DNA of 64,000 nt from Candidatus Poribacteria bacterium. Its GTDB lineage: Bacteria > Poribacteria > WGA-4E > WGA-3G. Shown piece by piece: positions 43,231 through 62,350 of this stretch. Location of the stretch: NCBI GenBank assembly GCA_965232545.1, contig OZ246979.1:2703521-2767520 (forward strand). The letters are read 5' to 3'. The position numbers were made by a program, and so were the translations under genes. The notes under the pieces are model-generated. The model ran no database searches and had not been told where the DNA came from. It saw only the letters and a program-made list of their open reading frames with translations. Each line of letters begins with the position of its first letter. Within the stretch, counting starts at the first letter, position 1.

Positions 43231-43776
43231 TTAAGCCTGCTCTACGTGCATTTCCGTGTTTTCTACACGTGTTAACCTGTATCCTAATATTGCACCGATA
43301 GGAACAGCAAGAATGTACCAGATTTCGACTGGCAAACCGAGGTATACCCATCCACGCATCGGTAATGAGATAATATACGCAAGTGTTTTAAGAACGGGAA
43401 GGAGCAATGCCAAGATTAGATTTGGTCTGCCAAATATTTCCCACGGAACGTTAAGCAGTGCCAGCAAACCGACGACAGCAGGGGGTCCCAAAAATGCCCC
43501 CGAACAAAGTGGTTTTAGCGGAATATCGGTGCCAAATTTTTGACTCACAAAACGGATCCCCGTGCTTGCCCCTACAATCACAACCCCGTATGTGACACTC
43601 AGTGAGATAAGGAGAAATAAACCGACCCAGAAGCCGTGGTCGACTCGATTCCCAAGTAGTAACTGCCAAATAAGTTTCTCAAATATCAGCAGGCAAATCC
43701 AGCCACCTACCAGCCCGACGATACTCCCCGCAACAATTTGCCCAAATGTTAATGTAATATTATTTTTCGTTTCCAT
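43231..43776 (-). CDS. Polytopic membrane protein, possibly an ECF-transporter S-component-like protein.
   Basis: Five or six predicted TM helices in 181 aa. No soluble domain. Confidence 0.35.
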   Translation of the reverse strand: METKNNITLTFGQIVAGSIVGLVGGWICLLIFEKLIWQLLLGNRVDHGFWVGLFLLISLSVTYGVVIVGASTGIRFVSQKFGTDIPLKPLCSGAFLGPPAVVGLLALLNVPWEIFGRPNLILALLLPVLKTLAYIISLPMRGWVYLGLPVEIWYILAVPIGAILGYRLTRVENTEMHVEQA

Positions 43777-43846
43777 GCGCTCCCGACTTTCTATTTAAAA
43801 TCTTAACTCTATTGTATCACGATGCAACATTATTGTCAAAGTTATC

Positions 43847-44530
43847 TCATCTATTTTCTGTAGGGTCATTTAGGCCTTCTGTTGGAGGGAATTCCGATAG
43901 GGACGTTTCAATCCATCGCGCCCCAAGTTGAAAAAGTGAATCGTTTGCTGGTGTTTCAAAGGTAAAAACGGGTTTGCCCCACGCCAACACTATCTGCGCA
44001 AATTCCAAAATCTTACTATCCTCTGCAGCGTGGGCAATACAGATTTTGTCCGCAAGTGCCGCAACAAAGAGGTTGCGTTGGTGCGCCAATGCCGCTGTCG
44101 ATCGCTGATGGCGACTCCCAAAAATAGATAGGATTAATAGACGCTTTTCAGATAACGCATCCTTCCACGCCGATTTCAGTCTCATCTTTTCGATGCTCCG
44201 TGCCGGACTTATGAGAATCGGCTGTGAGCCACGCAGTAAAACGCGTAGGCACTCCTGCTCAACTGGAGAGTGATACCCGCCTATCGTTGGGATACCTGCT
44301 TCTCTAAATTCTTGTGCCAAGTCATGCGCTTTCAGGATAATCTCTCCCGGGCATTTACTGGAGCAGAAAAGTGCCCAGAGGTCTCCGTTCAAGGTGGCGT
44401 TTTGCCCAGGTAACAGGTCAACACTCCCGCGTGCCCAGATCGTTTCGGGTGTCTCCGTTTTTAAATACTGCCTCAATCCTGTTGGATAATTCGTGTCTTT
44501 TTGTGTGATGTGTTGGATTGCCTGCGTCAC
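43847..44530 (-). CDS. Rossmann-fold nucleotide-binding protein of the DprA/Smf/SLOG-like family.
   Basis: Pattern IGGYHSPVEQECLRVLLRG...ILISPA resembles the DprA/SLOG core. This is a weak assignment. Confidence 0.3.
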   Translation of the reverse strand: MTQAIQHITQKDTNYPTGLRQYLKTETPETIWARGSVDLLPGQNATLNGDLWALFCSSKCPGEIILKAHDLAQEFREAGIPTIGGYHSPVEQECLRVLLRGSQPILISPARSIEKMRLKSAWKDALSEKRLLILSIFGSRHQRSTAALAHQRNLFVAALADKICIAHAAEDSKILEFAQIVLAWGKPVFTFETPANDSLFQLGARWIETSLSEFPPTEGLNDPTENR

Positions 44531-44591
44531 TTACTGTTAGTATCCTTCATGTAGGTCCTACTGCTTACGTTCGCGTAGTTAATCACGCAAT

Positions 44592-44650
44592 TAATCGCTT
44601 ACCTAATCGCTTACCTAATCGTTTACCTAATCGTTTACCTTTTGTACGTA
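44592..44650. repeat. Tandem 12-bp repeat (TAATCGYTTACC) of 4-5 copies.
   Basis: aattaatcgcttacctaatcgcttacctaatcgtttacctaatcgtttacc, read directly. A related motif recurs at about 47852-47897. Confidence 0.7.
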
Positions 44651-44886
44651 CTTAGTCCCTCGTCCCTTGCCTACTACATGTAATAATCCTTTATTTGTTA
44701 GATCTTTTAGTTCCTCATAGGCGATTCGGACTGAGACATGATTAATCTCTATGTATTCCTTTCTTCGGTGGTGGCGTTTTCGCCTTGTGCAATGCGTTGT
44801 TTGATAACAGCGGTTTCCATAGTTTTTTAGGGTCCGACAATGCGGTCTTGCCTATACGCTTCCATTTCCTTTTGCAGTGTTTCGAT

Positions 44887-45255
44887 CTATTGTTGCTGTG
44901 CCTCAATTTTTTCGTCCTGTGCGCGGACATCTCTTCGTTGTAGTGCGACAAGGATCTGAGGTATCCCGATGACCACGGCAATGAAAGCTACCAAAGCGAT
45001 AACCAACATAAAAATCTGGTTCAGACGTTTGTCCATTTCTGCGATTGTGATGTTGACGGTTTTAATTTCGTTAGAGATATGATCCTTCATCCGTGTCTCG
45101 GATGCGTCAACGTATTTTTTTATCCGGGTCTCGGATGCTTCAATTTCTGCCTTGACAATTAATCGGATCTTATCAATGTCTGCTTGAGTGAGTTCACCGA
45201 ACGCTGACGTGGTAAACAGCAGAAGTGCTACGATCAAAGTCATGATTAATTTCAT
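44887..45255 (-). CDS. Small secreted or membrane-anchored coiled-coil protein (hypothetical).
   Basis: N-terminal signal peptide, an internal sequence repeat (ASETRIKKYVDASETRMKDHI) and a C-terminal TM helix. Confidence 0.35.
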   Translation of the reverse strand: MKLIMTLIVALLLFTTSAFGELTQADIDKIRLIVKAEIEASETRIKKYVDASETRMKDHISNEIKTVNITIAEMDKRLNQIFMLVIALVAFIAVVIGIPQILVALQRRDVRAQDEKIEAQQQ

Positions 45256-45270
45256 TTTCGTCTCCTTTAC

Positions 45271-45474
45271 CTATTCTTCCCCAGGATTTTCAACGGGCAT
45301 CGGTTTACTGCGTCCCTTGTATATTAACTTAACCCGTATTGTGCCAGATTGACGCGGTGGGGGCGTAACTATGACCGCGTCCACGTTAAGGATGTCCTCT
45401 TCATCATAGACGGGAAAAGCGAGGCGTTGCTTCTGTTTTTTGTTCGTTGTGTTTTTTTGTTGTATAGTTTTCAT
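45271..45474 (-). CDS. Small hypothetical protein of 67 aa.
   Basis: ORF only. It is co-directional with and just upstream of the preceding small gene. Confidence 0.2.
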   Translation of the reverse strand: MKTIQQKNTTNKKQKQRLAFPVYDEEDILNVDAVIVTPPPRQSGTIRVKLIYKGRSKPMPVENPGEE

Positions 45475-46187
45475 AGACTGTTTAAAACTCCTTCACCTAC
45501 AATTTTAACAGAAGTTGGGAATACGTGCAACCGTATTACACAGCAGTCCCGTAAAGGAAATAGTGCGCGTTTCAGAGTATTCAGAGTAAATGGAAAAATA
45601 ATAGGTTTCAGGAAAAGTCCGTGAACCCATACTGGGACTGGATTCTCAGTGGTTTTTTCAGGAGGTTTCTCAGAAGTTTACTCTGAAATTTCAGAGGTGG
45701 GAGGAAGGCTTCGGTTTATACTGTCTGAATCAGGATTTTCAAGATTATAGGATTTTCAGGATAGGAAGAGAACAACGTTCTTCAGTCTACTGAAGGAAGA
45801 TGTTTTCTGTGATAGGTTTTCAGTCCGATTCACGGAGACTTTTCTGAGAGCAGATGGTCCGTGGGTTCGTGGAACGCAATATGTCCTCTCTCCGTGAAAA
45901 CACGAAATGAAAAATTATATTTAACGAAATGTTTCGCGTAGACCCTCCAGATGAATTAGCAATCAACGGAGGGTAGGCGCGGGATTGTTCGACGTTTTGA
46001 CGGAGGGCGGAGCCAATCCCAGAGCATAATTGTCTGAATCAAAATTTTCAGGATTTTAGGATAAACAAGATAATGCGAAGCGCGCTAAATCTCCTGTCGT
46101 CAAACTTTTGGTGAGTGGGAAGCATGATTTCTCAACCAGTTTAGTCCGTTTCTGTATCATTCTGAAAACGACTACGGATAAACTCTG

Positions 46188-47684
46188 TTACCTGTGGGCC
46201 CAATAATCTTGCTTACCTCCTGGGGTCTTGACAAAGAGTTCCCCGCTGTTAGTGTAAAAGATCTCTTTTTCCTGTTGCGGTGAAATTACAAGTTCAACTA
46301 CCCATAAATCTTCTGCAGTGCTTCCTTGTAAATCGTAAACATTATGAAATTCAATATCCCAATCTTCATCACTAATCGGAGGACGTATACCCCAAAGCTT
46401 TTCTGATACTTTACGGCGGACCTTATCTCTTTGTTGTTCATCAAGAGTTACACCTACCGTGATTCTATCATCCCTTATTCCCCAGAAAATACGTCCGCCT
46501 TCACTATTGAGAAAGGCGACAGCGTATTCATCAGCGGTATTTGTAATTGAACCAACTGGATTTCTGCCCTTGACTTCCTTAAATTCATAGAGGCGTGTTT
46601 CCTCAAAAGGAACAGATTGCCCCTGAATAAAATCAACTTGGGTTGGTTCGGTTAATTTTGCCCTATCAGTTGCATGAATTAGGTGTTCCTCAGCTAACCG
46701 TTTATTTTCACGTAACTCGGAAAGTTTACCTTCTGAATCCAACTTGATACCTACCTCAAAATATTCAATTGCTTTTTGATATTGCTTAAGCCGGAGAAAA
46801 GTTACACCCTTGCCGTTTAATATAATCGCTTTCTGAACTGGATCTTGCACCGCGCCAAGTGCTTTATCAAAATTCTCAAGGGCAGCTTGGAATTCGTCAA
46901 GATGAAGAAACGCCATACCATCATAACAGATATTCATTGGATCAATATACGAAACCAATTGTCCGGCACGTAGATCCTCTGCTGCCCTGGATAAGGAAAA
47001 ATTCCCTCCTGTCATTGCATCAATATATCTGCCATGCAAAGTTGCCAAGCTCACTTGAGTCCTTTGTACCGCCACCCGAATTTGGAGTTTAGCATAAAGA
47101 ATACCGTAAGCGGAAACGCTCATATCAGCAATAAGTCCTTCTGATAATCGGGAACCGAAATCTGAACGAAGTATGTGAGTAAACCAATCAAGAGTTGCAT
47201 CCGTAGGATTTAACTGATTCCAATGTGCCCACGATTCACGAAACTTGTCCGTGTCATTGTGCAAAGCGAACAGCAGAGCTGAAGGGGACACGTGTAATAT
47301 TCTACGAATCCCCTCTTTCTCCTCATCAGCTTGATATATTGAATTAAGATAAAAACGGCTAAGAATATAATCAACTAACTCAAAGTCAATTCTGGCAAAG
47401 TAATACTGAGAAGTAATAAACTGCTCTGCCTGCTCCTTATATTCCTCTTTATCCGATAAAAATTCTTGGGCTAATTGTGCAAAAGTCTCGATGTCTTTTT
47501 TGACAACATAGTGGTCAATCTTATCATTGCTTATTTTTTCGCAAATATTTTCTGAGACAAGTGCTGCAAGTTGCTCCTCTATAGCTACCAACGACTCACC
47601 AATCTCATTAGTAATTTCGTTGGCAGGGTTGAGAGTACAATCTAATAAGTGCAAGATAATTTTTTTACGGATTAAAGTATCCAT
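46188..47684 (-). CDS. TPR-repeat protein with a C-terminal AlbA_2 / Schlafen-like putative DNA-binding domain.
   Basis: TPR-like segment (KALGAVQDPVQKAIILNGKGVTFLRLKQYQKAIEYFEVGIKLD). The C-terminus (RLYEFKEVKG...AVAFLNSEGGRIFWGIRDDRITVGV) matches the AlbA_2 (PF04326) pattern seen in Schlafen-like defense proteins. Confidence 0.6.
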   Translation of the reverse strand: MDTLIRKKIILHLLDCTLNPANEITNEIGESLVAIEEQLAALVSENICEKISNDKIDHYVVKKDIETFAQLAQEFLSDKEEYKEQAEQFITSQYYFARIDFELVDYILSRFYLNSIYQADEEKEGIRRILHVSPSALLFALHNDTDKFRESWAHWNQLNPTDATLDWFTHILRSDFGSRLSEGLIADMSVSAYGILYAKLQIRVAVQRTQVSLATLHGRYIDAMTGGNFSLSRAAEDLRAGQLVSYIDPMNICYDGMAFLHLDEFQAALENFDKALGAVQDPVQKAIILNGKGVTFLRLKQYQKAIEYFEVGIKLDSEGKLSELRENKRLAEEHLIHATDRAKLTEPTQVDFIQGQSVPFEETRLYEFKEVKGRNPVGSITNTADEYAVAFLNSEGGRIFWGIRDDRITVGVTLDEQQRDKVRRKVSEKLWGIRPPISDEDWDIEFHNVYDLQGSTAEDLWVVELVISPQQEKEIFYTNSGELFVKTPGGKQDYWAHR

Positions 47685-47889
47685 TGCCTTCTCTATGTTT
47701 TACGATTTGCGAGATGCGTTCAATTTTCCTTGTCAATTTCCCGAATTACGATATTTAATGTCGTAGTTGGTGATGAAGTCAAATTTGTAACTATGCAGTC
47801 CGTAATAGATGGGAAAATATGACCGATTGTGAACACATTAAATATAAAATCATTTACCTAATCACCAACTCGATTAGTTATCTAATCGG

Positions 47890-48453
47890 TTACTTTCCTA
47901 ACTTAACCATACGAACCGTTAATCCCGAATTTGGTCCGGGTGGTAAACCGAGAGCAGGCTCAACGCCTTTAGATTTTCTCAAATCTTCTAGTAGTGCCTC
48001 AACCGATAACTTTCTCCCTAACAAAGCTTCGGATTCGGGGCGAGGTTGACTCACGGATTTTCCACGATACACCTCAACTTGATTTACGCCCTCCTCTATC
48101 GCACGAATACATAAACCTCTTACATAATATCGATTAAACTCCCCTTCACTAAGAGTGTCGGGAGCGTTTACAGGAACCTTAGCATTCGTGAAACCACCAC
48201 CCCGCTTTCTACGTTGCTCGTAATCTTTCATATAACCTTGACTGCGTAATTGTTGGGCAAGCCAAGTGTCATTATAGTGCTTTATAGCCTCTTTAAGAAG
48301 AGAAACATAATTCCGCTCTCCGAGTCCATTAAGGCGTGGGCTCATATAGAGATTCCCATTAGATAAGTCTGAATCAACTTCACTTAACATGAATGAACGC
48401 GTGCTTTCATCCAAATTTTCGTAATGTAGTGCCACAGCTATTTCTCCTCGCAT
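47890..48453 (-). CDS. Hypothetical 187-aa protein. It is a cassette gene flanked by duplicated copies of the methyltransferase 3' end.
   Basis: Clean ORF with balanced composition and no recognisable motif. It lies between direct repeats at about 47745-47790 and about 48715-48760. Confidence 0.45.
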   Translation of the reverse strand: MRGEIAVALHYENLDESTRSFMLSEVDSDLSNGNLYMSPRLNGLGERNYVSLLKEAIKHYNDTWLAQQLRSQGYMKDYEQRRKRGGGFTNAKVPVNAPDTLSEGEFNRYYVRGLCIRAIEEGVNQVEVYRGKSVSQPRPESEALLGRKLSVEALLEDLRKSKGVEPALGLPPGPNSGLTVRMVKLGK

Positions 48454-48699
48454 GCATTTTAGAATTTATGTTCCACGCTTGAATATAGATAATCCAAGGA
48501 AACGTATAAAAATCTGTGTTCCTATTTTCCGATTTTGCTCGATTGTGTTGACATTACAGTATTCTCAGGAAGTTCGACTAAATAGTGCCAGGCAGAGTGA
48601 AAACCTTCCGAACCGTGTTTCAACGTCAACAAATATTAAGTATACCACATCGCGGAAGAAAAGTCAAATGCATTGCATTTTTGCGTTCGGTTCACTGCC

Positions 48700-51600
48700 T
48701 CACTTCCCCAAGCCCATCCGATATTTGATGTCGTAGTTGATGATGAAGTCTAATTCCTCATCTGTGAAGCCGTAGTGTTTCGCAAGCACATGGTCGATTT
48801 CATCTATGATGTGTTTAGATTTTTGAATCTTGAATAACTGCGTTTCAGTGCGTCCAGTCCGCTTTTGAACGCGAACTTGCATTATGCTATTACATTGTAG
48901 ATCCTCCAAATACACTTTTCCGAGTTCAGCGAGTTGAGAATCATAAAGAGCAGACTTAGGGATTGGAAAATTCTTAATATCAGATGCAGAAAGATTTCGG
49001 CAGTCCGTCGTAATCGTGTACCACCACCAGAATAAATCACTACTCAAAACCGCAATGACAGGTCTCAATATTTCAGAAGTTTCAACACTAAACGCCCGCT
49101 CAGCCGTAGAGTTCCCTGATTTACCATTAACCCTAAACGCCGGTTGGAAATCTGTGAACACTTTCCAATATAATCCACCTGCTACGCGGTGATAAACTCG
49201 ATGTTTACTTTGCGCCATGAATAACCTTAAAACAGTTTTGACTGCGGTACATTTCTCAAGTAAATCGGTTTCAATTTCCATTCCCAACTTTGGTGCCCAA
49301 GTTGCTGTTCTATGGCGTGGTATTTCCACATAACCAATATTATACATTAGGGAATCTCGATTATCGGAAGACCATTTCTGACAGTTTGTAGAAAAAGTCC
49401 TATCTTGCCTTGAAGGAGTTGCAATGAAAATAGTTAGTAGAAGGTTTACCATATCAAACAGTTTAGCAGGACGCCATGAATAGTTGGCATACCAAACATT
49501 ACGACTTTCTTCTAAAATGGTTTGTATGGTCTGCATTCGTTGTGTGGAAACTAATGCTAAAGGAACAATCATGCTCATGCAACCATGTTGACTTAAAAGT
49601 TGGGCACTGCGATCTATGCACATTGCATGGATTGCTTTGGTTTCGTAGCTGGATAGGCTATTTGGAGGTAAATAATCGACCTGTCTTAATTCAAGGTACG
49701 GCGGATTGCCAATAATCACATCAAAGCCACCGTCCTTCAGGATCCCGTAAAACGCAATGAACCAGTGGAACGGCTTATGTGAAGAAAGCCATGCTTGATA
49801 AGCAGCATTGGTATCCGCCGAGTTGAGATTTATTCTGCTTATCGTTTGTAAAGTGGGGGGGGGGCACACTATATTCGCCAGCAAGGTATTCGTTGAGTTC
49901 GTTTTCTAACGCCCTGAGTTTATCCTGTAACGCTTGTTTGTCTGCTAGGTGCACATCACCACCTAATTCCGTCTGCTGCTCCCGAAACAGGAAAGACAGC
50001 CACTCAACATCTTCAACCTTTTCTTCAATGCGCTTCATGCTATCGTCGAAGTCAAATTTACCGGTGACTGCTTCCTTCACCTCATCGTAGGAAGTATAAC
50101 CGACGAGGGTATTCCCTGCCTGAATGTTAAAGTCGATGTCTGGTAGCGGCTCAATCCGTCTCACGTCCTCAAGTTGCGCTACCATTTTAAGGAAGAGGCG
50201 CAGTTTGCAAATCTCAATTGCCTCGTCCATGATGTCTACGCCGTAGAGGTTGTTGATAATGATGGATTTGAGGATGAAGTAACGGTGATTCGGGTGCTGC
50301 TTGATGTCCTCAAGGATATTGCGGAAGTCGTTATATTTACGAGAAGGGTGTGATTCAGAAATCATTTCTATCTCGTCCAAGAAGACTTGCATCCGATCAA
50401 GACATACCTCATAGAGCGGTTCGAGGATATTCAGTGCGGCAAATAGGAACGCCCCGGAACCACAGGTGGGGTCGAGGATTGTCACCTGTGTGATGGCTTT
50501 CCAGAAGGCGCGGAGCAGTTCGGGCCCCTCACAATTCTCGATGACATCCTGCGCGAATTGGCGGATATTGAGATTGTAGGTAATCAGATCGTTGATGTCA
50601 CGGACCTCTCCGTTTTTGAGTTTCGCTCGGACAGTTTCATAACGTTGTCGCCGTGCGACGACCTCTCGCCAAATCTCTGTTGGCAAGGCATATTCATCGG
50701 ACGCGAGTGTGTTCCAACAATCGGTACGTTTGGAGACATCGCCAATTCCCACAGCAATTTCCTCTGGCAGATCGAATTCAACACCTTTTTTGACAGCATC
50801 GTAGATATAGCGGTCAGGATCTTCTTGTAGGAGGTGCCAGACGGATGCGTCGCCTTCAAAGGCGATTTTGCACGCTTTTCGCGCCTTGTCAAAAAGGCAT
50901 GGAATGATGGCATTTTTGCTGATGTAGTCCGTGATGTCCTCTTTAGTGTAGTAGGCACCCATCTGCTTCTGGTTGATGTATTTCTCAAAAATACAACCGA
51001 GGACATCTGGGTTGATCTCGTTGTCGTTCCGCAGCGGACGATCGTCGAGGTGCCACTGGTATTGATCAAAGAACTTGAAAAGCTGATCGAATGCCTTGTC
51101 AGGAATCTCAATGTTTTCGCCGTGGAGGGTCTCAATTTGGTGTTTCTGAAAGATGCCGCCGTTGAGGTAAGGGATTTTACCCAGTAGGCGTTTCACCTCT
51201 CTGCTTCGTTCGGCTTCCGGTTTCGCAAATCCTTCAAAGAAGAGGGGACAGAGGAGCTTTTTGTAATATTGATCGGTCTCCTGTTCTTGACCGTGTGCCA
51301 ATTTGGTGCATAGATAGTTGGGGTCGTTATCAAGAAAGCCTTTCTTCTGAATGAAGTAGATGAACATCAGACGGTTGAGCATGACGGAGGCGTACCAGCG
51401 TTGCATCTCTTCATCAGGAATACCTTTGAGAAATTTAAGGAATGCGTCATGCTCTTTCTTGAAACGGTCATAGAAACGTTTGGTGACTTTTTCAACGTCA
51501 AAACTTGCTCGAACCCGACTCGTCACGTCAAACAGTGTAAGTTGCCCTTCTTCCTCAAAACTAAAGGCAATGGCTTCAAGTTTTTGGATCAGCAAGTTCC

Positions 51601-51976
51601 CGGGTTGTGTTGTATGATACCGATGTTCACGACATGCTGTGGGTTTGCCGTGCTCTCGTCTTACCCACTGCCAGATTTGTGTATTTTTTTCCACATCGGT
51701 GTAAATGATAAAGTTCTCGTGGAAAGATTTTGCAACTTCCTTTTGAATCTTGCGGCGAGTGGCATAATCCGGCATGTGGTCATTAGATGTAGTTTGTGAA
51801 CACTCAAAGACGACCATTCCGCGTTTTTCGGCGATGGCGGTGAGTTGGTATTCGATTCCGTCTACCGTGATATTGAGTGGTTGGATCCGGTGAAAATCCC
51901 AACCGAGTTCTTCAATAAAGAGGCTTTCAAATTCGGATTCTTTGAGATATTGACGTGTTTCTCGGACGTTAAGCAT
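48700..51976 (-). CDS. Large N6-adenine DNA methyltransferase (gamma-like motif order; PglX / Type IIG-like). It is interrupted by a +1 frameshift at a G10 (C10 on the coding strand) homopolymer and is a phase-variable gene in the OFF state.
   Basis: The upstream frame (49775-52144 in the ORF track) carries AdoMet motif I ILDPTCGSGAFLFAAL and the N-terminal module ...WYASVMLNRLMFIYFIQKKGFLDN... The downstream frame (48700-49884) carries motif IV VIIGNPPYL. The two frames meet at 10 consecutive C; 9 or 12 would give a single protein of about 1092 aa (...EYSVPPPTLQTISR...). The start is refined to the ATG at 51976, with an AAGGAAG RBS. Confidence 0.75.
49855..49864. repeat. Homopolymeric G10 tract (C10 on the coding strand), a simple-sequence contingency locus inside the methyltransferase gene.
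   Basis: aaagtGGGGGGGGGGcacact, read directly. Coordinates are within about 1 bp. Confidence 0.85.
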
Positions 51977-52034: not shown

Positions 52035-52721
52035 TTAGTCGTAGTCCTCGTCCTCATCGAGTGCCTCCGGGTCCAGGTCCATTCCGAGGTAAAGCCCCAT
52101 GGGAGCGAGTCCTGCTTTGACTTTTTGGAGCGATCCCATCCCAAAATTACTGATCAGTAGTAGTTCTTCTTCCGTTTTTTCGACGAGTGTGCGTAAGGTA
52201 TAGATGTTTGCCCTTTCGAGACAATTGTGGGCTCGGGTAGGGAGTCTGAGTGCGGCGATAGATAGGGTTAAGTAATCATCCCGCTCCTGTTCCGTCACAT
52301 CAGCGATCTCCGGCTCCCTGTAGATGTTAGGGAACAGCGGGTCCCGTTCATGTTGGGCCTCGATAATATCTATCCAGGGCGAATCCAATTCCTGTTCTGC
52401 CTCAGTAATATCTGCCAAGACATCCCGTTCCGGATTGAGCAAAGTTCTTTGGAGCGAAGGAGGGAGGGATTCCCAAATCCTCGCGTAATGCTCCGATTCT
52501 GACGCAGCTTCGCACCAACGGTCGAGAAAGGTCCGAAGCGTCTCGCTATCTTCCTTCCCCTCTGAAATCTGTGTTATGACTTGGAATAATTCCTTAAAAA
52601 ACACAATGAGGTCTTCTACCGGTAACCATTTGACCCAATCGTAGGGCTTTGGAATTGGAACAGATTTGACGAGCAATTCGTCGTCTATAAGGTATCCGAC
52701 AACAAGTTTAGCATCTTTCAT
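52035..52721 (-). CDS. Hypothetical protein with a C-terminal domain resembling the RNA polymerase alpha-subunit C-terminal domain (alpha-CTD, HhH). Paralog 1.
   Basis: The C-terminus LSIAALRLPTRAHNCLERANIYTLRTLVEKTEEELLLISNFGMGSLQKVKAGLAPMGLYLGMD matches the RpoA alpha-CTD pattern (LSVRS.NCLK...I.T...L....E.EL....N.G.KSL.EI...L...GL.LGM). The start is refined to MKDAKLVVGY. Confidence 0.55.
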   Translation of the reverse strand: MKDAKLVVGYLIDDELLVKSVPIPKPYDWVKWLPVEDLIVFFKELFQVITQISEGKEDSETLRTFLDRWCEAASESEHYARIWESLPPSLQRTLLNPERDVLADITEAEQELDSPWIDIIEAQHERDPLFPNIYREPEIADVTEQERDDYLTLSIAALRLPTRAHNCLERANIYTLRTLVEKTEEELLLISNFGMGSLQKVKAGLAPMGLYLGMDLDPEALDEDEDYD

Positions 52722-52830
52722 CTGGAGTCTCCTTGTAGCAAGAATGTTGAATTTACGCCAATTATACATGACGTACTGATAGCATTCAAGATTTTTTGGA
52801 GGTCGGAGTTGCCAATCCTTCCTGCAAGTG

Positions 52831-53660
52831 TTAGAGTGGCATCCTCGGTATCTCTGTCTTCAAACCGAGAATCGAGCATCTCAGCATTCTGCGATCCCAT
52901 GGGTAGCGGTTCATCGTTCTCAATGGCGTGTCGGTCAATCCAGCGCGTGCTTCCTGCGACAAGTGATACGCCATTTTGATATAAATGTGATAGGGCGGAA
53001 TAAGTTCCTCACGCGCCCAACTCTGCTCGATAATCTCAACCAATTCCTTAGAAATATCGATGCACCATCTGTCATTCCACCGGTCTTCAAACCAGTCCTC
53101 CAATTTTTCGCAAGCATCCGAGTCAACAACATCAATATTGAGTTCTCCCTGATGCGACAGCCCAGAAAGCGTCAAATTGCTACTGCCGAGGTAACCCACA
53201 GTCGGTGCGACGAGGTCGGAGCGATAGATGAGATAGAGTTTCGCATGGAGGGTGTGTCGGAGAAAAAGTTTTACCTTTACCTTCTCGTCCCGAAGCTGCT
53301 GCGCCAATTGACGTAACCCTCTTTCGTCTGCACGCGTTGGTACACCGACGGTTAACTGTTCTCGGAACTCCTCTGCTAACCTCCGTTTCAAACGGAGTGC
53401 TGTTTGATTGTCGATCCCACCGTCCTGCTTAGCGAGTCGTTTGGCCTCGCAGAGTTCTTCTTCGGCCAAGCGTTGCATCCCGACAAGTAAACGGCAGCAT
53501 TCGCCTTCACCCCATCCCAATTCTCAATATAAGATCCGAGTCCTCTCCATCCCCGGAGGTTAAAATAACCGACACAAAAGTCGGCGTATGTGGCAGTTTC
53601 AAGTGTCTGTTGGAGTGCGGGAAGTAGGGGTTGGTAGATATTATCAAAAATACGGGGCAT
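52831..53660 (-). pseudogene. PLD-family (HKD-motif) nuclease gene split by a frameshift (N-terminal fragment 53388-53660, C-terminal part 52831-53520).
   Basis: The N-terminal fragment is MPRIFDNIYQPLLPALQQTLETATYADFCVGYFNLRGW... The C-terminal frame carries [11 protein letters not shown]...GSSNLT (an HxK...GSxN PLD signature). The two frames overlap around 53470-53540 with no long homopolymer. Its ATG abuts the stop of the upstream alpha-CTD-like gene (TAAATG). Confidence 0.6.
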
Positions 53661-54455
53661 TTAGAATGATGCCTCCTCGTCGTCCTCGTCGAACAGATCC
53701 ATTCCCAGGTAAAGCCCCAAGCCAGCGAGTTTGGATTTGATTTCGTGGAGCGTCGCTTGTCCGAGCCCCTGGTATTCCAGGAGGTCCCATTCCATTTTTG
53801 CGACGAGTTCTCGGACGGTTTTGATATTTTCATTTTTAAGACAGTTGTGGGCACGAGCAGAGAGTTGAAGCTTGGAAATGTCGTATGCTAAATGTTTCTC
53901 CTGCTCTGCTTCCGTCACGTCACGTACCACCGGTTCAGCATCACCAGCGTGCATGGGTGAACGGTAATCCGGTTCCACGCCAACGATATCTACCCAGGGC
54001 GAATCCAATTCCTGTTCTGCCTCCAAAATATCTGCCAGGACATCCCGTTCGGAACTGATCATGGCTTTTCCGATGAAACCGGCGAGAGAATTCAAAAGTG
54101 TCGCGGGATCTTGCCCTTTTAAGGCAGCTTCTAAAGCATCTACGCTCCAATCGGTGACGACGGTCGGAGGGGTCTTGCTATCTTCTTCAAATATCTCAGA
54201 ATCTTCCTCGCCTAAGGCTATTTCGCGCCAACTTAAGGCAATTTCATGCCAAAAGTCGAGAAAAGTCTGAAGCGTTTTGCTATCTTCCTTTTCCTCTGAA
54301 ATTTGGATCATCAATTCCAGTAATTCCCCAAAAAACTGAGCAAGTTCCTCGTTCGCTAACCACTTGATCCAATCGTGAGATTCTGGAATCGTAAAAGATT
54401 TGACGAACATTTCGTCATCCATAAGGTATCCAACGACGAGTTTGGGCATTTTCAT
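53661..54455 (-). CDS. Hypothetical protein with a C-terminal RNA polymerase alpha-CTD-like domain. Paralog 2.
   Basis: Shares the N-terminal block KLVVGYLxDDExxVKS...ERDVLADIxEAEQELDSPWxDI and the C-terminal LSARAHNCLKNENIKTVRELVAKMEWDLLEYQGLGQATLHEIKSKLAGLGLYLGMD with paralog 1. Confidence 0.55.
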   Translation of the reverse strand: MKMPKLVVGYLMDDEMFVKSFTIPESHDWIKWLANEELAQFFGELLELMIQISEEKEDSKTLQTFLDFWHEIALSWREIALGEEDSEIFEEDSKTPPTVVTDWSVDALEAALKGQDPATLLNSLAGFIGKAMISSERDVLADILEAEQELDSPWVDIVGVEPDYRSPMHAGDAEPVVRDVTEAEQEKHLAYDISKLQLSARAHNCLKNENIKTVRELVAKMEWDLLEYQGLGQATLHEIKSKLAGLGLYLGMDLFDEDDEEASF

Positions 54456-59223: not shown

Positions 59224-59462
59224 GTATAGAGAGATTGAGTTTTCGTTTTGTGTCACGCTACACAGAAAATGTTACACTTTTAATCTTTTTTCGCTTTTTT
59301 CGCGGCGAAGCACAGAACCCAAAACGTTTCCAAACTCAGGCAGGACGTAGGTTTATGGGACGTGAATGCTAAGCATGAAATGTTACAGTAGTGTAACATT
59401 TTCCTATGGGAATGGGTAGGCAAATTACAACATAAACCTTCCCTGAAAAAACAGGGTAAGAT

Positions 59463-59491
59463 TTGACATTGAATGGCAAAAGTGGTATCAT
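59463..59491 (+). promoter_or_regulatory. Near-consensus internal promoter (TTGACA-17-TATCAT) upstream of nuoD.
   Basis: ttgacattgaatggcaaaagtggtatcat. A perfect palindrome AAATGTTACAgtagTGTAACATTT lies about 70 bp upstream. Confidence 0.4.
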
Positions 59492-59533
59492 ATATACGGG
59501 TAAAGTCCACAGATGTGGAGACGAATCAGAAAT

Positions 59534-59654
59534 CAAATCCGTAGTTCGTAACGAAGTGGAGGACGGTTTTCGAGAAAGGCGCGTCGAAGTTTTAGGGGAA
59601 ACACCCAAGCAAAAACACCCATGCCGTTTAACCGCAAGGTAAAATTAAAGAATG
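59534..59654 (+). repeat. Conserved 5'-leader module before nuoD: an upstream box AAATCCGTAGyyCGTAAcGaaGtGGAGG, a variable or invertible middle, and AACCGCAAGGTAAAATTAAAgaATG.
   Basis: The same bipartite module precedes nuoI (62231-62353) and nuoJ (63097-63196). The 3' box alone precedes the gene at 3790 (3768-3792). An antisense copy of the 3' box is at 29581-29600. Confidence 0.6.
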
Positions 59655-62191: not shown

Positions 62192-62350
62192 AGCTTTTCG
62201 TCTAACAAAGGGTTTCTCTTAGGCGAGTCTCAAAATCCGTAGTCCGTAAGCGTAGCGGAGGGGTTTTTGCTTGGGTGTTTCCCCTAGATCTACCGGAAGG
62301 CTCATGAGATACGAAACCGAGCTGACCGAACCGCAAGGTAAATTAAAAAA

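Follow-up and report, generated by a model that had tools for sequence, protein, structure and literature searches.

Evidence for recent pseudogenisation of an HKD nuclease-SNF2 helicase gene beside an out-of-frame DNA methyltransferase gene in Candidatus Poribacteria

Type III and Type ISP restriction systems (Res/Mod; LlaGI-like) combine an SF2 motor and a nuclease with an m6A methyltransferase that sets specificity, and a phase-variable homopolymer tract in mod is a classic feature of Type III systems. The HxK...GSxN nuclease fold (RE_NgoFVII, PLDc_2) is shared by NgoAVII, BfiI, and Nuc, in which it stands alone or is joined to DNA-binding domains, with no translocase. In SauUSI (PDB 7clg), an ATP-dependent type IV enzyme, an N-terminal PLD/HKD nuclease is followed by an SF2 ATPase, and Type-2 BREX-related systems pair an N6-methyltransferase with a helicase in which an N-terminal HKD endoDNase is joined to Swi2/Snf2 (PMC12839542). 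Separately, the methyltransferase Slr6050 (M.Ssp6803IV) of Synechocystis sp. PCC 6803 has been tentatively assigned GA(m6A)GGC, and the slr6050 knockout never segregated (PMC6105098).

Here, we analysed a locus in a 64-kb stretch of Candidatus Poribacteria DNA (hereafter the window, i.e., the whole of the DNA that was analysed), in which a first-pass annotation had noted a frameshifted PLD-family HKD nuclease gene. We conclude with high confidence that minus-strand positions 53660..52833 are a pseudogene of an ~1,130-aa HKD+SNF2 restriction-type gene, with three lesions, a dead product, and an orphaned methyltransferase. The lesions are the loss of one base at codon 50, a 1,060-bp deletion after codon 243, and an ~1.7-kb deletion that leaves an out-of-frame 98-bp scrap of the gene behind. 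The HKD domain named in the first-pass annotation is indeed present, but what had been taken for a nuclease gene is the front 24% of an HKD+SNF2 helicase gene, and the two deletions had been missed. The closest intact locus, L007 (OZ243935.1), is syntenic with ~93% nucleotide identity in the flanks and occupies the same chromosomal site, with ThuA and nuo on one side and a DprA-like gene on the other; its cassette is intact, with a 1,132-aa helicase and a 1,096-aa methyltransferase. The cassette is likewise intact in L084 and in L004, the latter with exactly the gene order of the window. Against these loci, the region is laid out as follows.

53661..54455, minus strand: alpha-CTD-like gene A (264 aa, intact), directly upstream of the HKD remnant
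53512..53660, minus strand: codons 1-50 of the HKD+SNF2 helicase pseudogene (frame A), in a remnant with 95% amino acid identity to L007
53510-53513, minus strand: frameshift site, a GGGG run (cccc on the plus strand) that is one base short, at Gly50 of D-G-G-E
52931..53511, minus strand: codons 51-243 (frame B), the remaining HKD/PLD nuclease domain (PLDc_2 40.8 bits, cut-off 27)
52930..52931: junction J1, a 1,060-bp deletion (not a multiple of 3) relative to L007 10732-11791
52833..52930, minus strand: 98-bp internal helicase scrap, with 92.9% nucleotide identity to L007 11792-11889 (residues 598-630)
52832..52833: junction J2, a second deletion, where ~1.7 kb of L004 (11890-13595) is replaced by 24 bp
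52035..52810, minus strand: alpha-CTD-like gene B (228 aa, probable start 52721, intact), with a promoter-like TGTATAAT region at 52810..52722

Two minus-strand open reading frames cover the remnant, one of 90 aa (53660..53388; MPRIF...GYFNLRGW...), which begins MPRIFDNIYQPLL and ends in junk, and one of 229 aa (53520..52831; ...HAKLYLIY...GSSNLT), lying in different frames that overlap over 53388-53520 (~130 nt). With the intact L007 protein as tblastn query, residues 1-69 matched one frame (E=1e-27) and residues 51-244 the other (E=2e-113); both ORFs are thus co-linear with one protein family, which puts the split-gene signal far beyond chance and bears out the frameshift reported from the sequence at first sight. 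The N-terminal 243 residues are co-linear with the family throughout, at 95% amino acid identity to L007 and 67-95% to 80 genome loci, and once repaired they match not only the Pfam family PLDc_2 but also RE_NgoFVII (27.1 bits, cut-off 23.8) and the PADLOC model HKD+Snf2. In repaired numbering, the catalytic HAK is H139-A-K141 (53247..53239) and GSSN is residues 159-162 (53187..53176), both invariant in alignments of 22 and 60 sequences. The break in frame interrupts the HKD domain between a strand and helix (residues 23-30 and 35-46) and the next strand (residues 56-61). The start codon at 53660 (ATG) lies directly against the TAA that ends the upstream alpha-CTD-like gene.

The family itself is one of long proteins. 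Among 5.8 billion proteins searched, 2,297 were homologous, and each match listed covers 88% of the query, i.e., residues 1-243; past ARAGL, the listed homologues run on as EFxIPRxFxxKLFEFQTAAVKIAAHHLNxRGGVLIGDVVGLGKT, which is an SNF2 ATPase. Among the 80 genome loci, the ORF from the MPRIFDNI start was 1,051-1,155 aa long in 63 of the 72 that could be assessed, and in Candidatus Poribacteria it was 1,125-1,145 aa long in every one of 14 loci. The intact L007 protein has the domain order HKD, SNF2-related domain, DEAD/ResIII, and Helicase_C, and matches PADLOC HKD+Snf2 (C3a139) at E=1e-52, and a homologue at 70% identity, modelled with AlphaFold (pLDDT 69), has the PLD nuclease domains of SauUSI and NgoAVII as its best PDB folds. 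When the PDB was searched by sequence with the intact helicase and the intact methyltransferase, the only matches were to generic helicase cores and, weakly, to PglX/BrxX. Because the homologues are ~1,130 aa long with an SNF2 ATPase after the HKD domain, we regard the gene as the head of an HKD+SNF2 restriction-type translocase and not as a stand-alone nuclease; intact, it would encode an HKD nuclease of phospholipase-D fold at the N-terminus, joined to an ATPase/translocase of the SNF2 family. With its co-linear N-terminus and downstream methyltransferase but no SNF2 motifs, the window locus is a remnant and not a working member of this family.

Alignment to intact homologues, as the first-pass annotation had proposed, located the indel. 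In a DNA alignment with eight relatives, the window reads GATGG-GGTGAA where relatives have GATGGCGGTGAA (GAT GGC GGT GAA, Asp-Gly-Gly-Glu), so that it is one base short in the cccc at 53510-53513, a position inside the overlap of about 53470-53540 estimated at the outset. The early remark that the junction holds no long homopolymer, only short runs such as ccccatccc, also held: the HKD remnant contains no G/C run of at least 5, and the run at the frame junction is G4, with no long homopolymer or repeat tract of a phase-variation switch there. Across the 80 genome loci together with L001, L002, L083, and L084, the site is read through in one frame, and relatives carry GGCGG, GGTGG, GGAGG, or GGGGG. 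In L084, it reads GATGGGGGTGAA (GAT GGG GGT), giving the 5-G run GATGGGGGT.

That 5-G run makes a homopolymer miscall conceivable, and the rival explanation that survives best is that the missing base is a sequencing or consensus error, G5 read as G4, with no real frameshift at codon 50, an idea with which the low dN/dS of the remnant (see below), no higher than in intact genes, would also agree. We consider such an error unlikely, though not negligibly so. The closest relatives (L007, L001, L003, and L004) have GGCGG at the site rather than a homopolymer, and ~10 kb of aligned housekeeping CDS (nuo genes, ThuA, an enolase-superfamily gene, purF, and others) contained no other net frameshifting indel against L007, L001, and L003, all gaps of lengths not divisible by three being intergenic or inside the island, which argues against a generally error-prone assembly. 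We thus take the missing base to be probably a genuine lesion. Restoring it would in any case not rescue the gene, as the ORF then runs into the 1,060-bp deletion, reads junk past residue 243, and acquires no ATPase domain.

The two deletions are the main lesions. The window can be aligned with L007 from 57323 down to 52931 and loses homology immediately past codon 243, where the J1 deletion takes out SNF2 motifs I-III; the 98-bp scrap that follows is out of frame and supplies a junk tail ending MPL*. The J2 deletion then covers the 3' half of the helicase gene and the spacer, and beyond it come the promoter-like TGTATAAT region and the CDS of alpha-CTD-like gene B. A tblastn search with L007 as query found residues 1-50, 51-244, and 598-630 as the only helicase left in the whole 64-kb window, across which SNF2 motifs I (GLGKT), II (DESH), III (SATP), and VI (QRAGR) are absent. 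In all, 24% of the helicase gene is kept and ~2.6 kb of coding sequence was lost via the two deletions; since these remove the motor, the gene is dead with or without the codon-50 base. With the nuclease domain split after its first strand and helix and all of the ATPase motifs lost, the product would be unable to restrict DNA.

The pairwise dN/dS of the remnant is 0.044, the same as for intact pairs, and the window branch carries 4N:8S substitutions against 1N:11S for L007, a non-synonymous excess that is not significant. Relaxed selection on the remnant was accordingly considered and set aside, with dN/dS not raised (0.044) and the branch excess too small for significance. A remnant dN/dS as low as that of intact copies indicates that the decay is recent, or in part an artefact.

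An artefact of assembly (collapse or chimera), with the full gene present in the real genome, is improbable as the source of the large deletions. All three lesions are read from one assembly of an uncultured organism, and the alpha-CTD-like paralogues flank the gene as direct repeats, which could in principle favor collapse. However, these paralogues are only ~72% identical at the DNA level and neither junction falls inside them; breakpoints mapped against L007, L004, L002, and L084 place J1 and J2 in unique helicase sequence, without shared repeat or microhomology at either one. Further, a 98-bp island between two deletions is unlike the product of a repeat collapse, and independent assemblies of relatives (L001, L082, and L073) show other real deletions in the same gene. 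Among metagenome contigs, neither the J1 junction 26-mer nor the frameshift-site pattern (with 0 or 1 extra base allowed) had a match, and an exact look-up of three window proteins in a protein index found none of them.

Less probable still is that a short, HKD-only gene is a functional, selected nuclease, or that homologues keep a conserved two-gene arrangement. In its favor, four loci from unrelated lineages (L073, L082, L054, and L028) keep only ~244-268 N-terminal residues, and the N-domains of BfiI/NgoAVII, as well as Nuc, work as ~150-200-aa dimerising HKD modules. These short copies are separate deletions, though, with differing end points and differing junk tails; L082 still has its final ~20 helicase codons, read out of frame, a sign of deletion and not of a designed short gene, and retention of residues 1-243 was the criterion by which loci were chosen, so that the set is biased towards remnants of this kind. 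On database evidence, too, a short form of HKD protein conserved as such was rejected, every short protein there being a fragment of the long protein. In the window, moreover, the HKD domain is split at residue 50, separating the first strand and helix from the rest of the fold, and none of 84 related loci is split at the site, so the two-gene arrangement raised at first pass finds no counterpart among them. As an observation in its own right, L082 (676-1546; Deltaproteobacteria MAG) and L073 (5267-7212; Nitrospirota MAG) each keep ~245-250 HKD residues beside a methyltransferase, i.e., motor loss with retention of the 5' end recurs, in a set of loci selected for having that end.

A programmed frameshift (ribosomal -1 or +2, or transcriptional slippage) yielding a full HKD protein, also suggested at first pass, can be dismissed almost entirely, since despite the ~130-nt frame overlap and an N-terminal ORF translationally coupled to the upstream gene, the overlap has no X XXY YYZ slippery heptamer and a run of just 4 G, the two-frame layout occurs in 0 of 84 related loci (the 80 genome loci plus L001, L002, L083, and L084, all single-frame), and frameshifting would still give a truncated product of 276 aa, the last 33 of them junk.

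The reading that we favor, a pseudogene of a nuclease-helicase, extends to its partner, whose features are these.

48700..51976, minus strand: partner m6A DNA methyltransferase, Eco57I/PglX-like (PADLOC PDLC03628)
49855..49864, minus strand: G10 (plus strand) / C10 (minus strand) tract in the methyltransferase gene, the sole homopolymer of at least 8 in the 64-kb window

Matches to Eco57I/MmeI_Mtase and PADLOC PDLC03628 span the methyltransferase over its whole length, and the gene is split over two frames, at model positions 3-716 and 717-1095. Its tract is C8 in L007 (ON, 1,096 aa), C11 in L003 (OFF), and C10 in the window, and more distant Poribacteria lack a poly-G tract. The window gene further carries a 2-nt deletion at ~49833, just downstream of the tract, and given this deletion C9 or C12 would restore the frame. 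The G10 tract looks like a phase-variation tract, with errors of tract length in the assemblies also possible, and the simplest reading of the window methyltransferase would be that it is an orphan in the OFF state. A PD-(D/E)xK nuclease in its N-terminus (PADLOC 'IIG') was considered and rejected, since the E of the A-E-K-R-G motif, judged by eye, is H or Q in many homologues; the HKD domain is here taken as the nuclease of the system.

We infer that the intact system would be an ATP-dependent restriction-modification system, in which the methyltransferase would mark self DNA while the HKD-SNF2 protein would translocate on DNA and cleave what is unmarked, probably as an HKD-mediated dimer as in SauUSI. 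An orphaned methyltransferase would be free to drift or to switch off, as it has done here through the G10 tract and the 2-nt deletion. With the nuclease-helicase dead, an OFF methyltransferase is harmless, and the link that the first-pass annotation drew between nuclease loss and the OFF state is in this sense reasonable.

Related loci show other stages of decay. The window combines a gutted helicase with an out-of-frame methyltransferase, while the helicase of L001 lacks residues 294-389 and everything after 571. In L003 (16487-20240), two transposase genes (391 and 384 aa) interrupt the methyltransferase, which is also frameshifted at the C11 tract, and the helicase ORF is intact at 1,132 aa; at residue 172 of the HKD domain, an otherwise invariant Gly next to the catalytic region, L003 alone among 85 loci has Ala. 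These decay patterns suggest an addiction logic, in which the nuclease may be lost first, as in the window and L001, with the helicase beside the dead methyltransferase of L003 carrying Gly172Ala. A dependence of restriction on the methyltransferase, earlier drawn from L003, was withdrawn in view of the slr6050 knockout that never segregated and the G172A change in L003.

Over 47 long loci from many phyla, just three gene clusters are conserved, namely the helicase (47), the methyltransferase (45), and a DprA-like gene (22). The methyltransferase, of ~1,100 aa, lies downstream of the helicase on the same strand in 45/47 loci, and DprA-like homologues of ~220 aa directly follow it in 22/47 across phyla, which makes the DprA-like protein probably a third, optional component of the cassette. 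In the window, ~4 kb of extra genes lie between the DprA-like gene and the methyltransferase:

43847..44530, minus strand: DprA-like gene (227 aa, intact; DNA_processg_A E=3.5e-11, PADLOC PsyrA E=1.4e-16)

PsyrA and ShosA are antitoxin-like partners in other defence systems. Among the extra genes (46188-48453, minus strand; between the methyltransferase and DprA-like genes, and absent from L007) are one for a 498-aa TPR + Schlafen/AlbA_2 protein, which is also found downstream of the cassette in L084, and one for a 187-aa protein with no family match.

Other neighbors vary between loci. Alpha-CTD-like gene B fills the slot between helicase and methyltransferase, as in L004. Both paralogues, A and B, end in an RNA-polymerase alpha-subunit C-terminal domain (Pfam E=3e-19 and 7e-17), and a TGTATAAT element lies upstream of each copy. 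Over the first ~100 residues, they share ~48% identity with a protein of 105-109 aa in L007, L001, L003, and L005, where it sits in the same slot upstream of a ParE-like toxin. The family comprises ~108 clusters, with all named members from Candidatus Poribacteria. Toxin-antitoxin pairs occur between helicase and methyltransferase in unrelated lineages, VapBC in Synechocystis (L085, PCC 6803 pSYSX 43696-51129) and a ParE-like toxin with a small partner in Poribacteria (L007 13525-14120). Further from the cassette, the nuo operon has intergenic insertions of 13-22 bp relative to L007 and L001 (e.g., the 22-bp GTTTTTGCTTGGGTGTTTCCCC at ~62263, i.e., 62263-62284), and in L084 the 59519-59649 spacer (window region 59297-59625) is repeated in tandem, as three to four units of ~110 bp.

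Taken together, these comparisons point to recent, genuine pseudogenisation, and among the readings offered at first pass it is the inactivating mutation in a decaying island that stands, with the motor deleted and the methyltransferase also out of frame. The simplest reading is the ordinary flux of a defence island with its nuclease-helicase dead. A broader proposal, which we put forward only tentatively and consider rather doubtful as a whole, would join to this a widespread ATP-dependent restriction-modification cassette, its decay by addiction logic, and a poly-G switch and alpha-CTD proteins confined to one Poribacteria sub-clade. On the same reading of the sequences, that cassette would consist of the HKD+SNF2 protein, the Eco57I/PglX-like m6A methyltransferase, and, in about half of loci, the DprA/PsyrA-like protein, and would be distinct from DUF499 BREX-related systems and from DISARM.

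The locus is one more defence gene caught during loss and is best labelled a pseudogene remnant rather than a frameshifted PLD nuclease; for the annotation of sponge-associated Poribacteria, this means that the methyltransferase here is read as an orphan with a variable poly-G tract. Beyond the single locus, the comparison defines a two- to three-gene cassette across many phyla with a cultured member on Synechocystis pSYSX, and sister genomes, as natural 'knock-outs', are informative on whether the nuclease-helicase can kill without its methyltransferase.

Among known systems, NgoAVII (4rct) shares the fold of the HKD domain and is the second-best fold match. DISARM class 1 shows partial HMM similarity (motor to DrmD 1e-33, methyltransferase to DrmMI 3e-25; 122 against an NCBIfam cut-off of 610), yet DrmA and DrmB (DUF1998) had no match among the island ORFs, and DISARM has a separate PLD protein, DrmC, whereas the PLD domain of the cassette is fused to the helicase. 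Compared with Type III and Type ISP systems, the nuclease here is an N-terminal HKD fold and not PD-(D/E)xK, the motor belongs to the SNF2 family, and the methyltransferase is a 1,100-aa Eco57I/PglX-like protein. What defines Type-2 BREX-related systems is the presence of a DUF499 AAA+ ATPase together with DUF3780, and neither is conserved beside the cassette; no island ORF gave a Pfam or PADLOC match to either, and an assignment to Type-2 BREX-related/Hma systems was rejected on this absence. The PADLOC match of the helicase to HmaA is also much weaker than that to HKD+Snf2 (8e-19 vs 1e-52).

SauUSI is the best match of the HKD model (E=1.3e-4, prob 1.00), although it differs in targeting modified DNA, in having no methyltransferase partner, in its non-SNF2 motor, and in its identity of ~16%. 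The same cassette is found on Synechocystis sp. PCC 6803 plasmid pSYSX, where WP_011153866, a 'helicase-related protein', is 52% identical over residues 1-1127 and shares the HAK, GSSN, GLGKT, and DESH motifs of the family, and where Slr6050 is 49% identical to the methyltransferase over its full length, in the same gene order. On pSYSX, a VapBC pair sits between the two genes, as a toxin-antitoxin pair does in L007. The Synechocystis copy is intact and plasmid-borne, whereas in the window the helicase is gutted and the methyltransferase is out of frame. The failure of the slr6050 knockout to segregate is what would be expected if the neighboring nuclease-helicase kills unmethylated cells, and it suggests that loss of the methyltransferase may be harmful for as long as its partner is intact.
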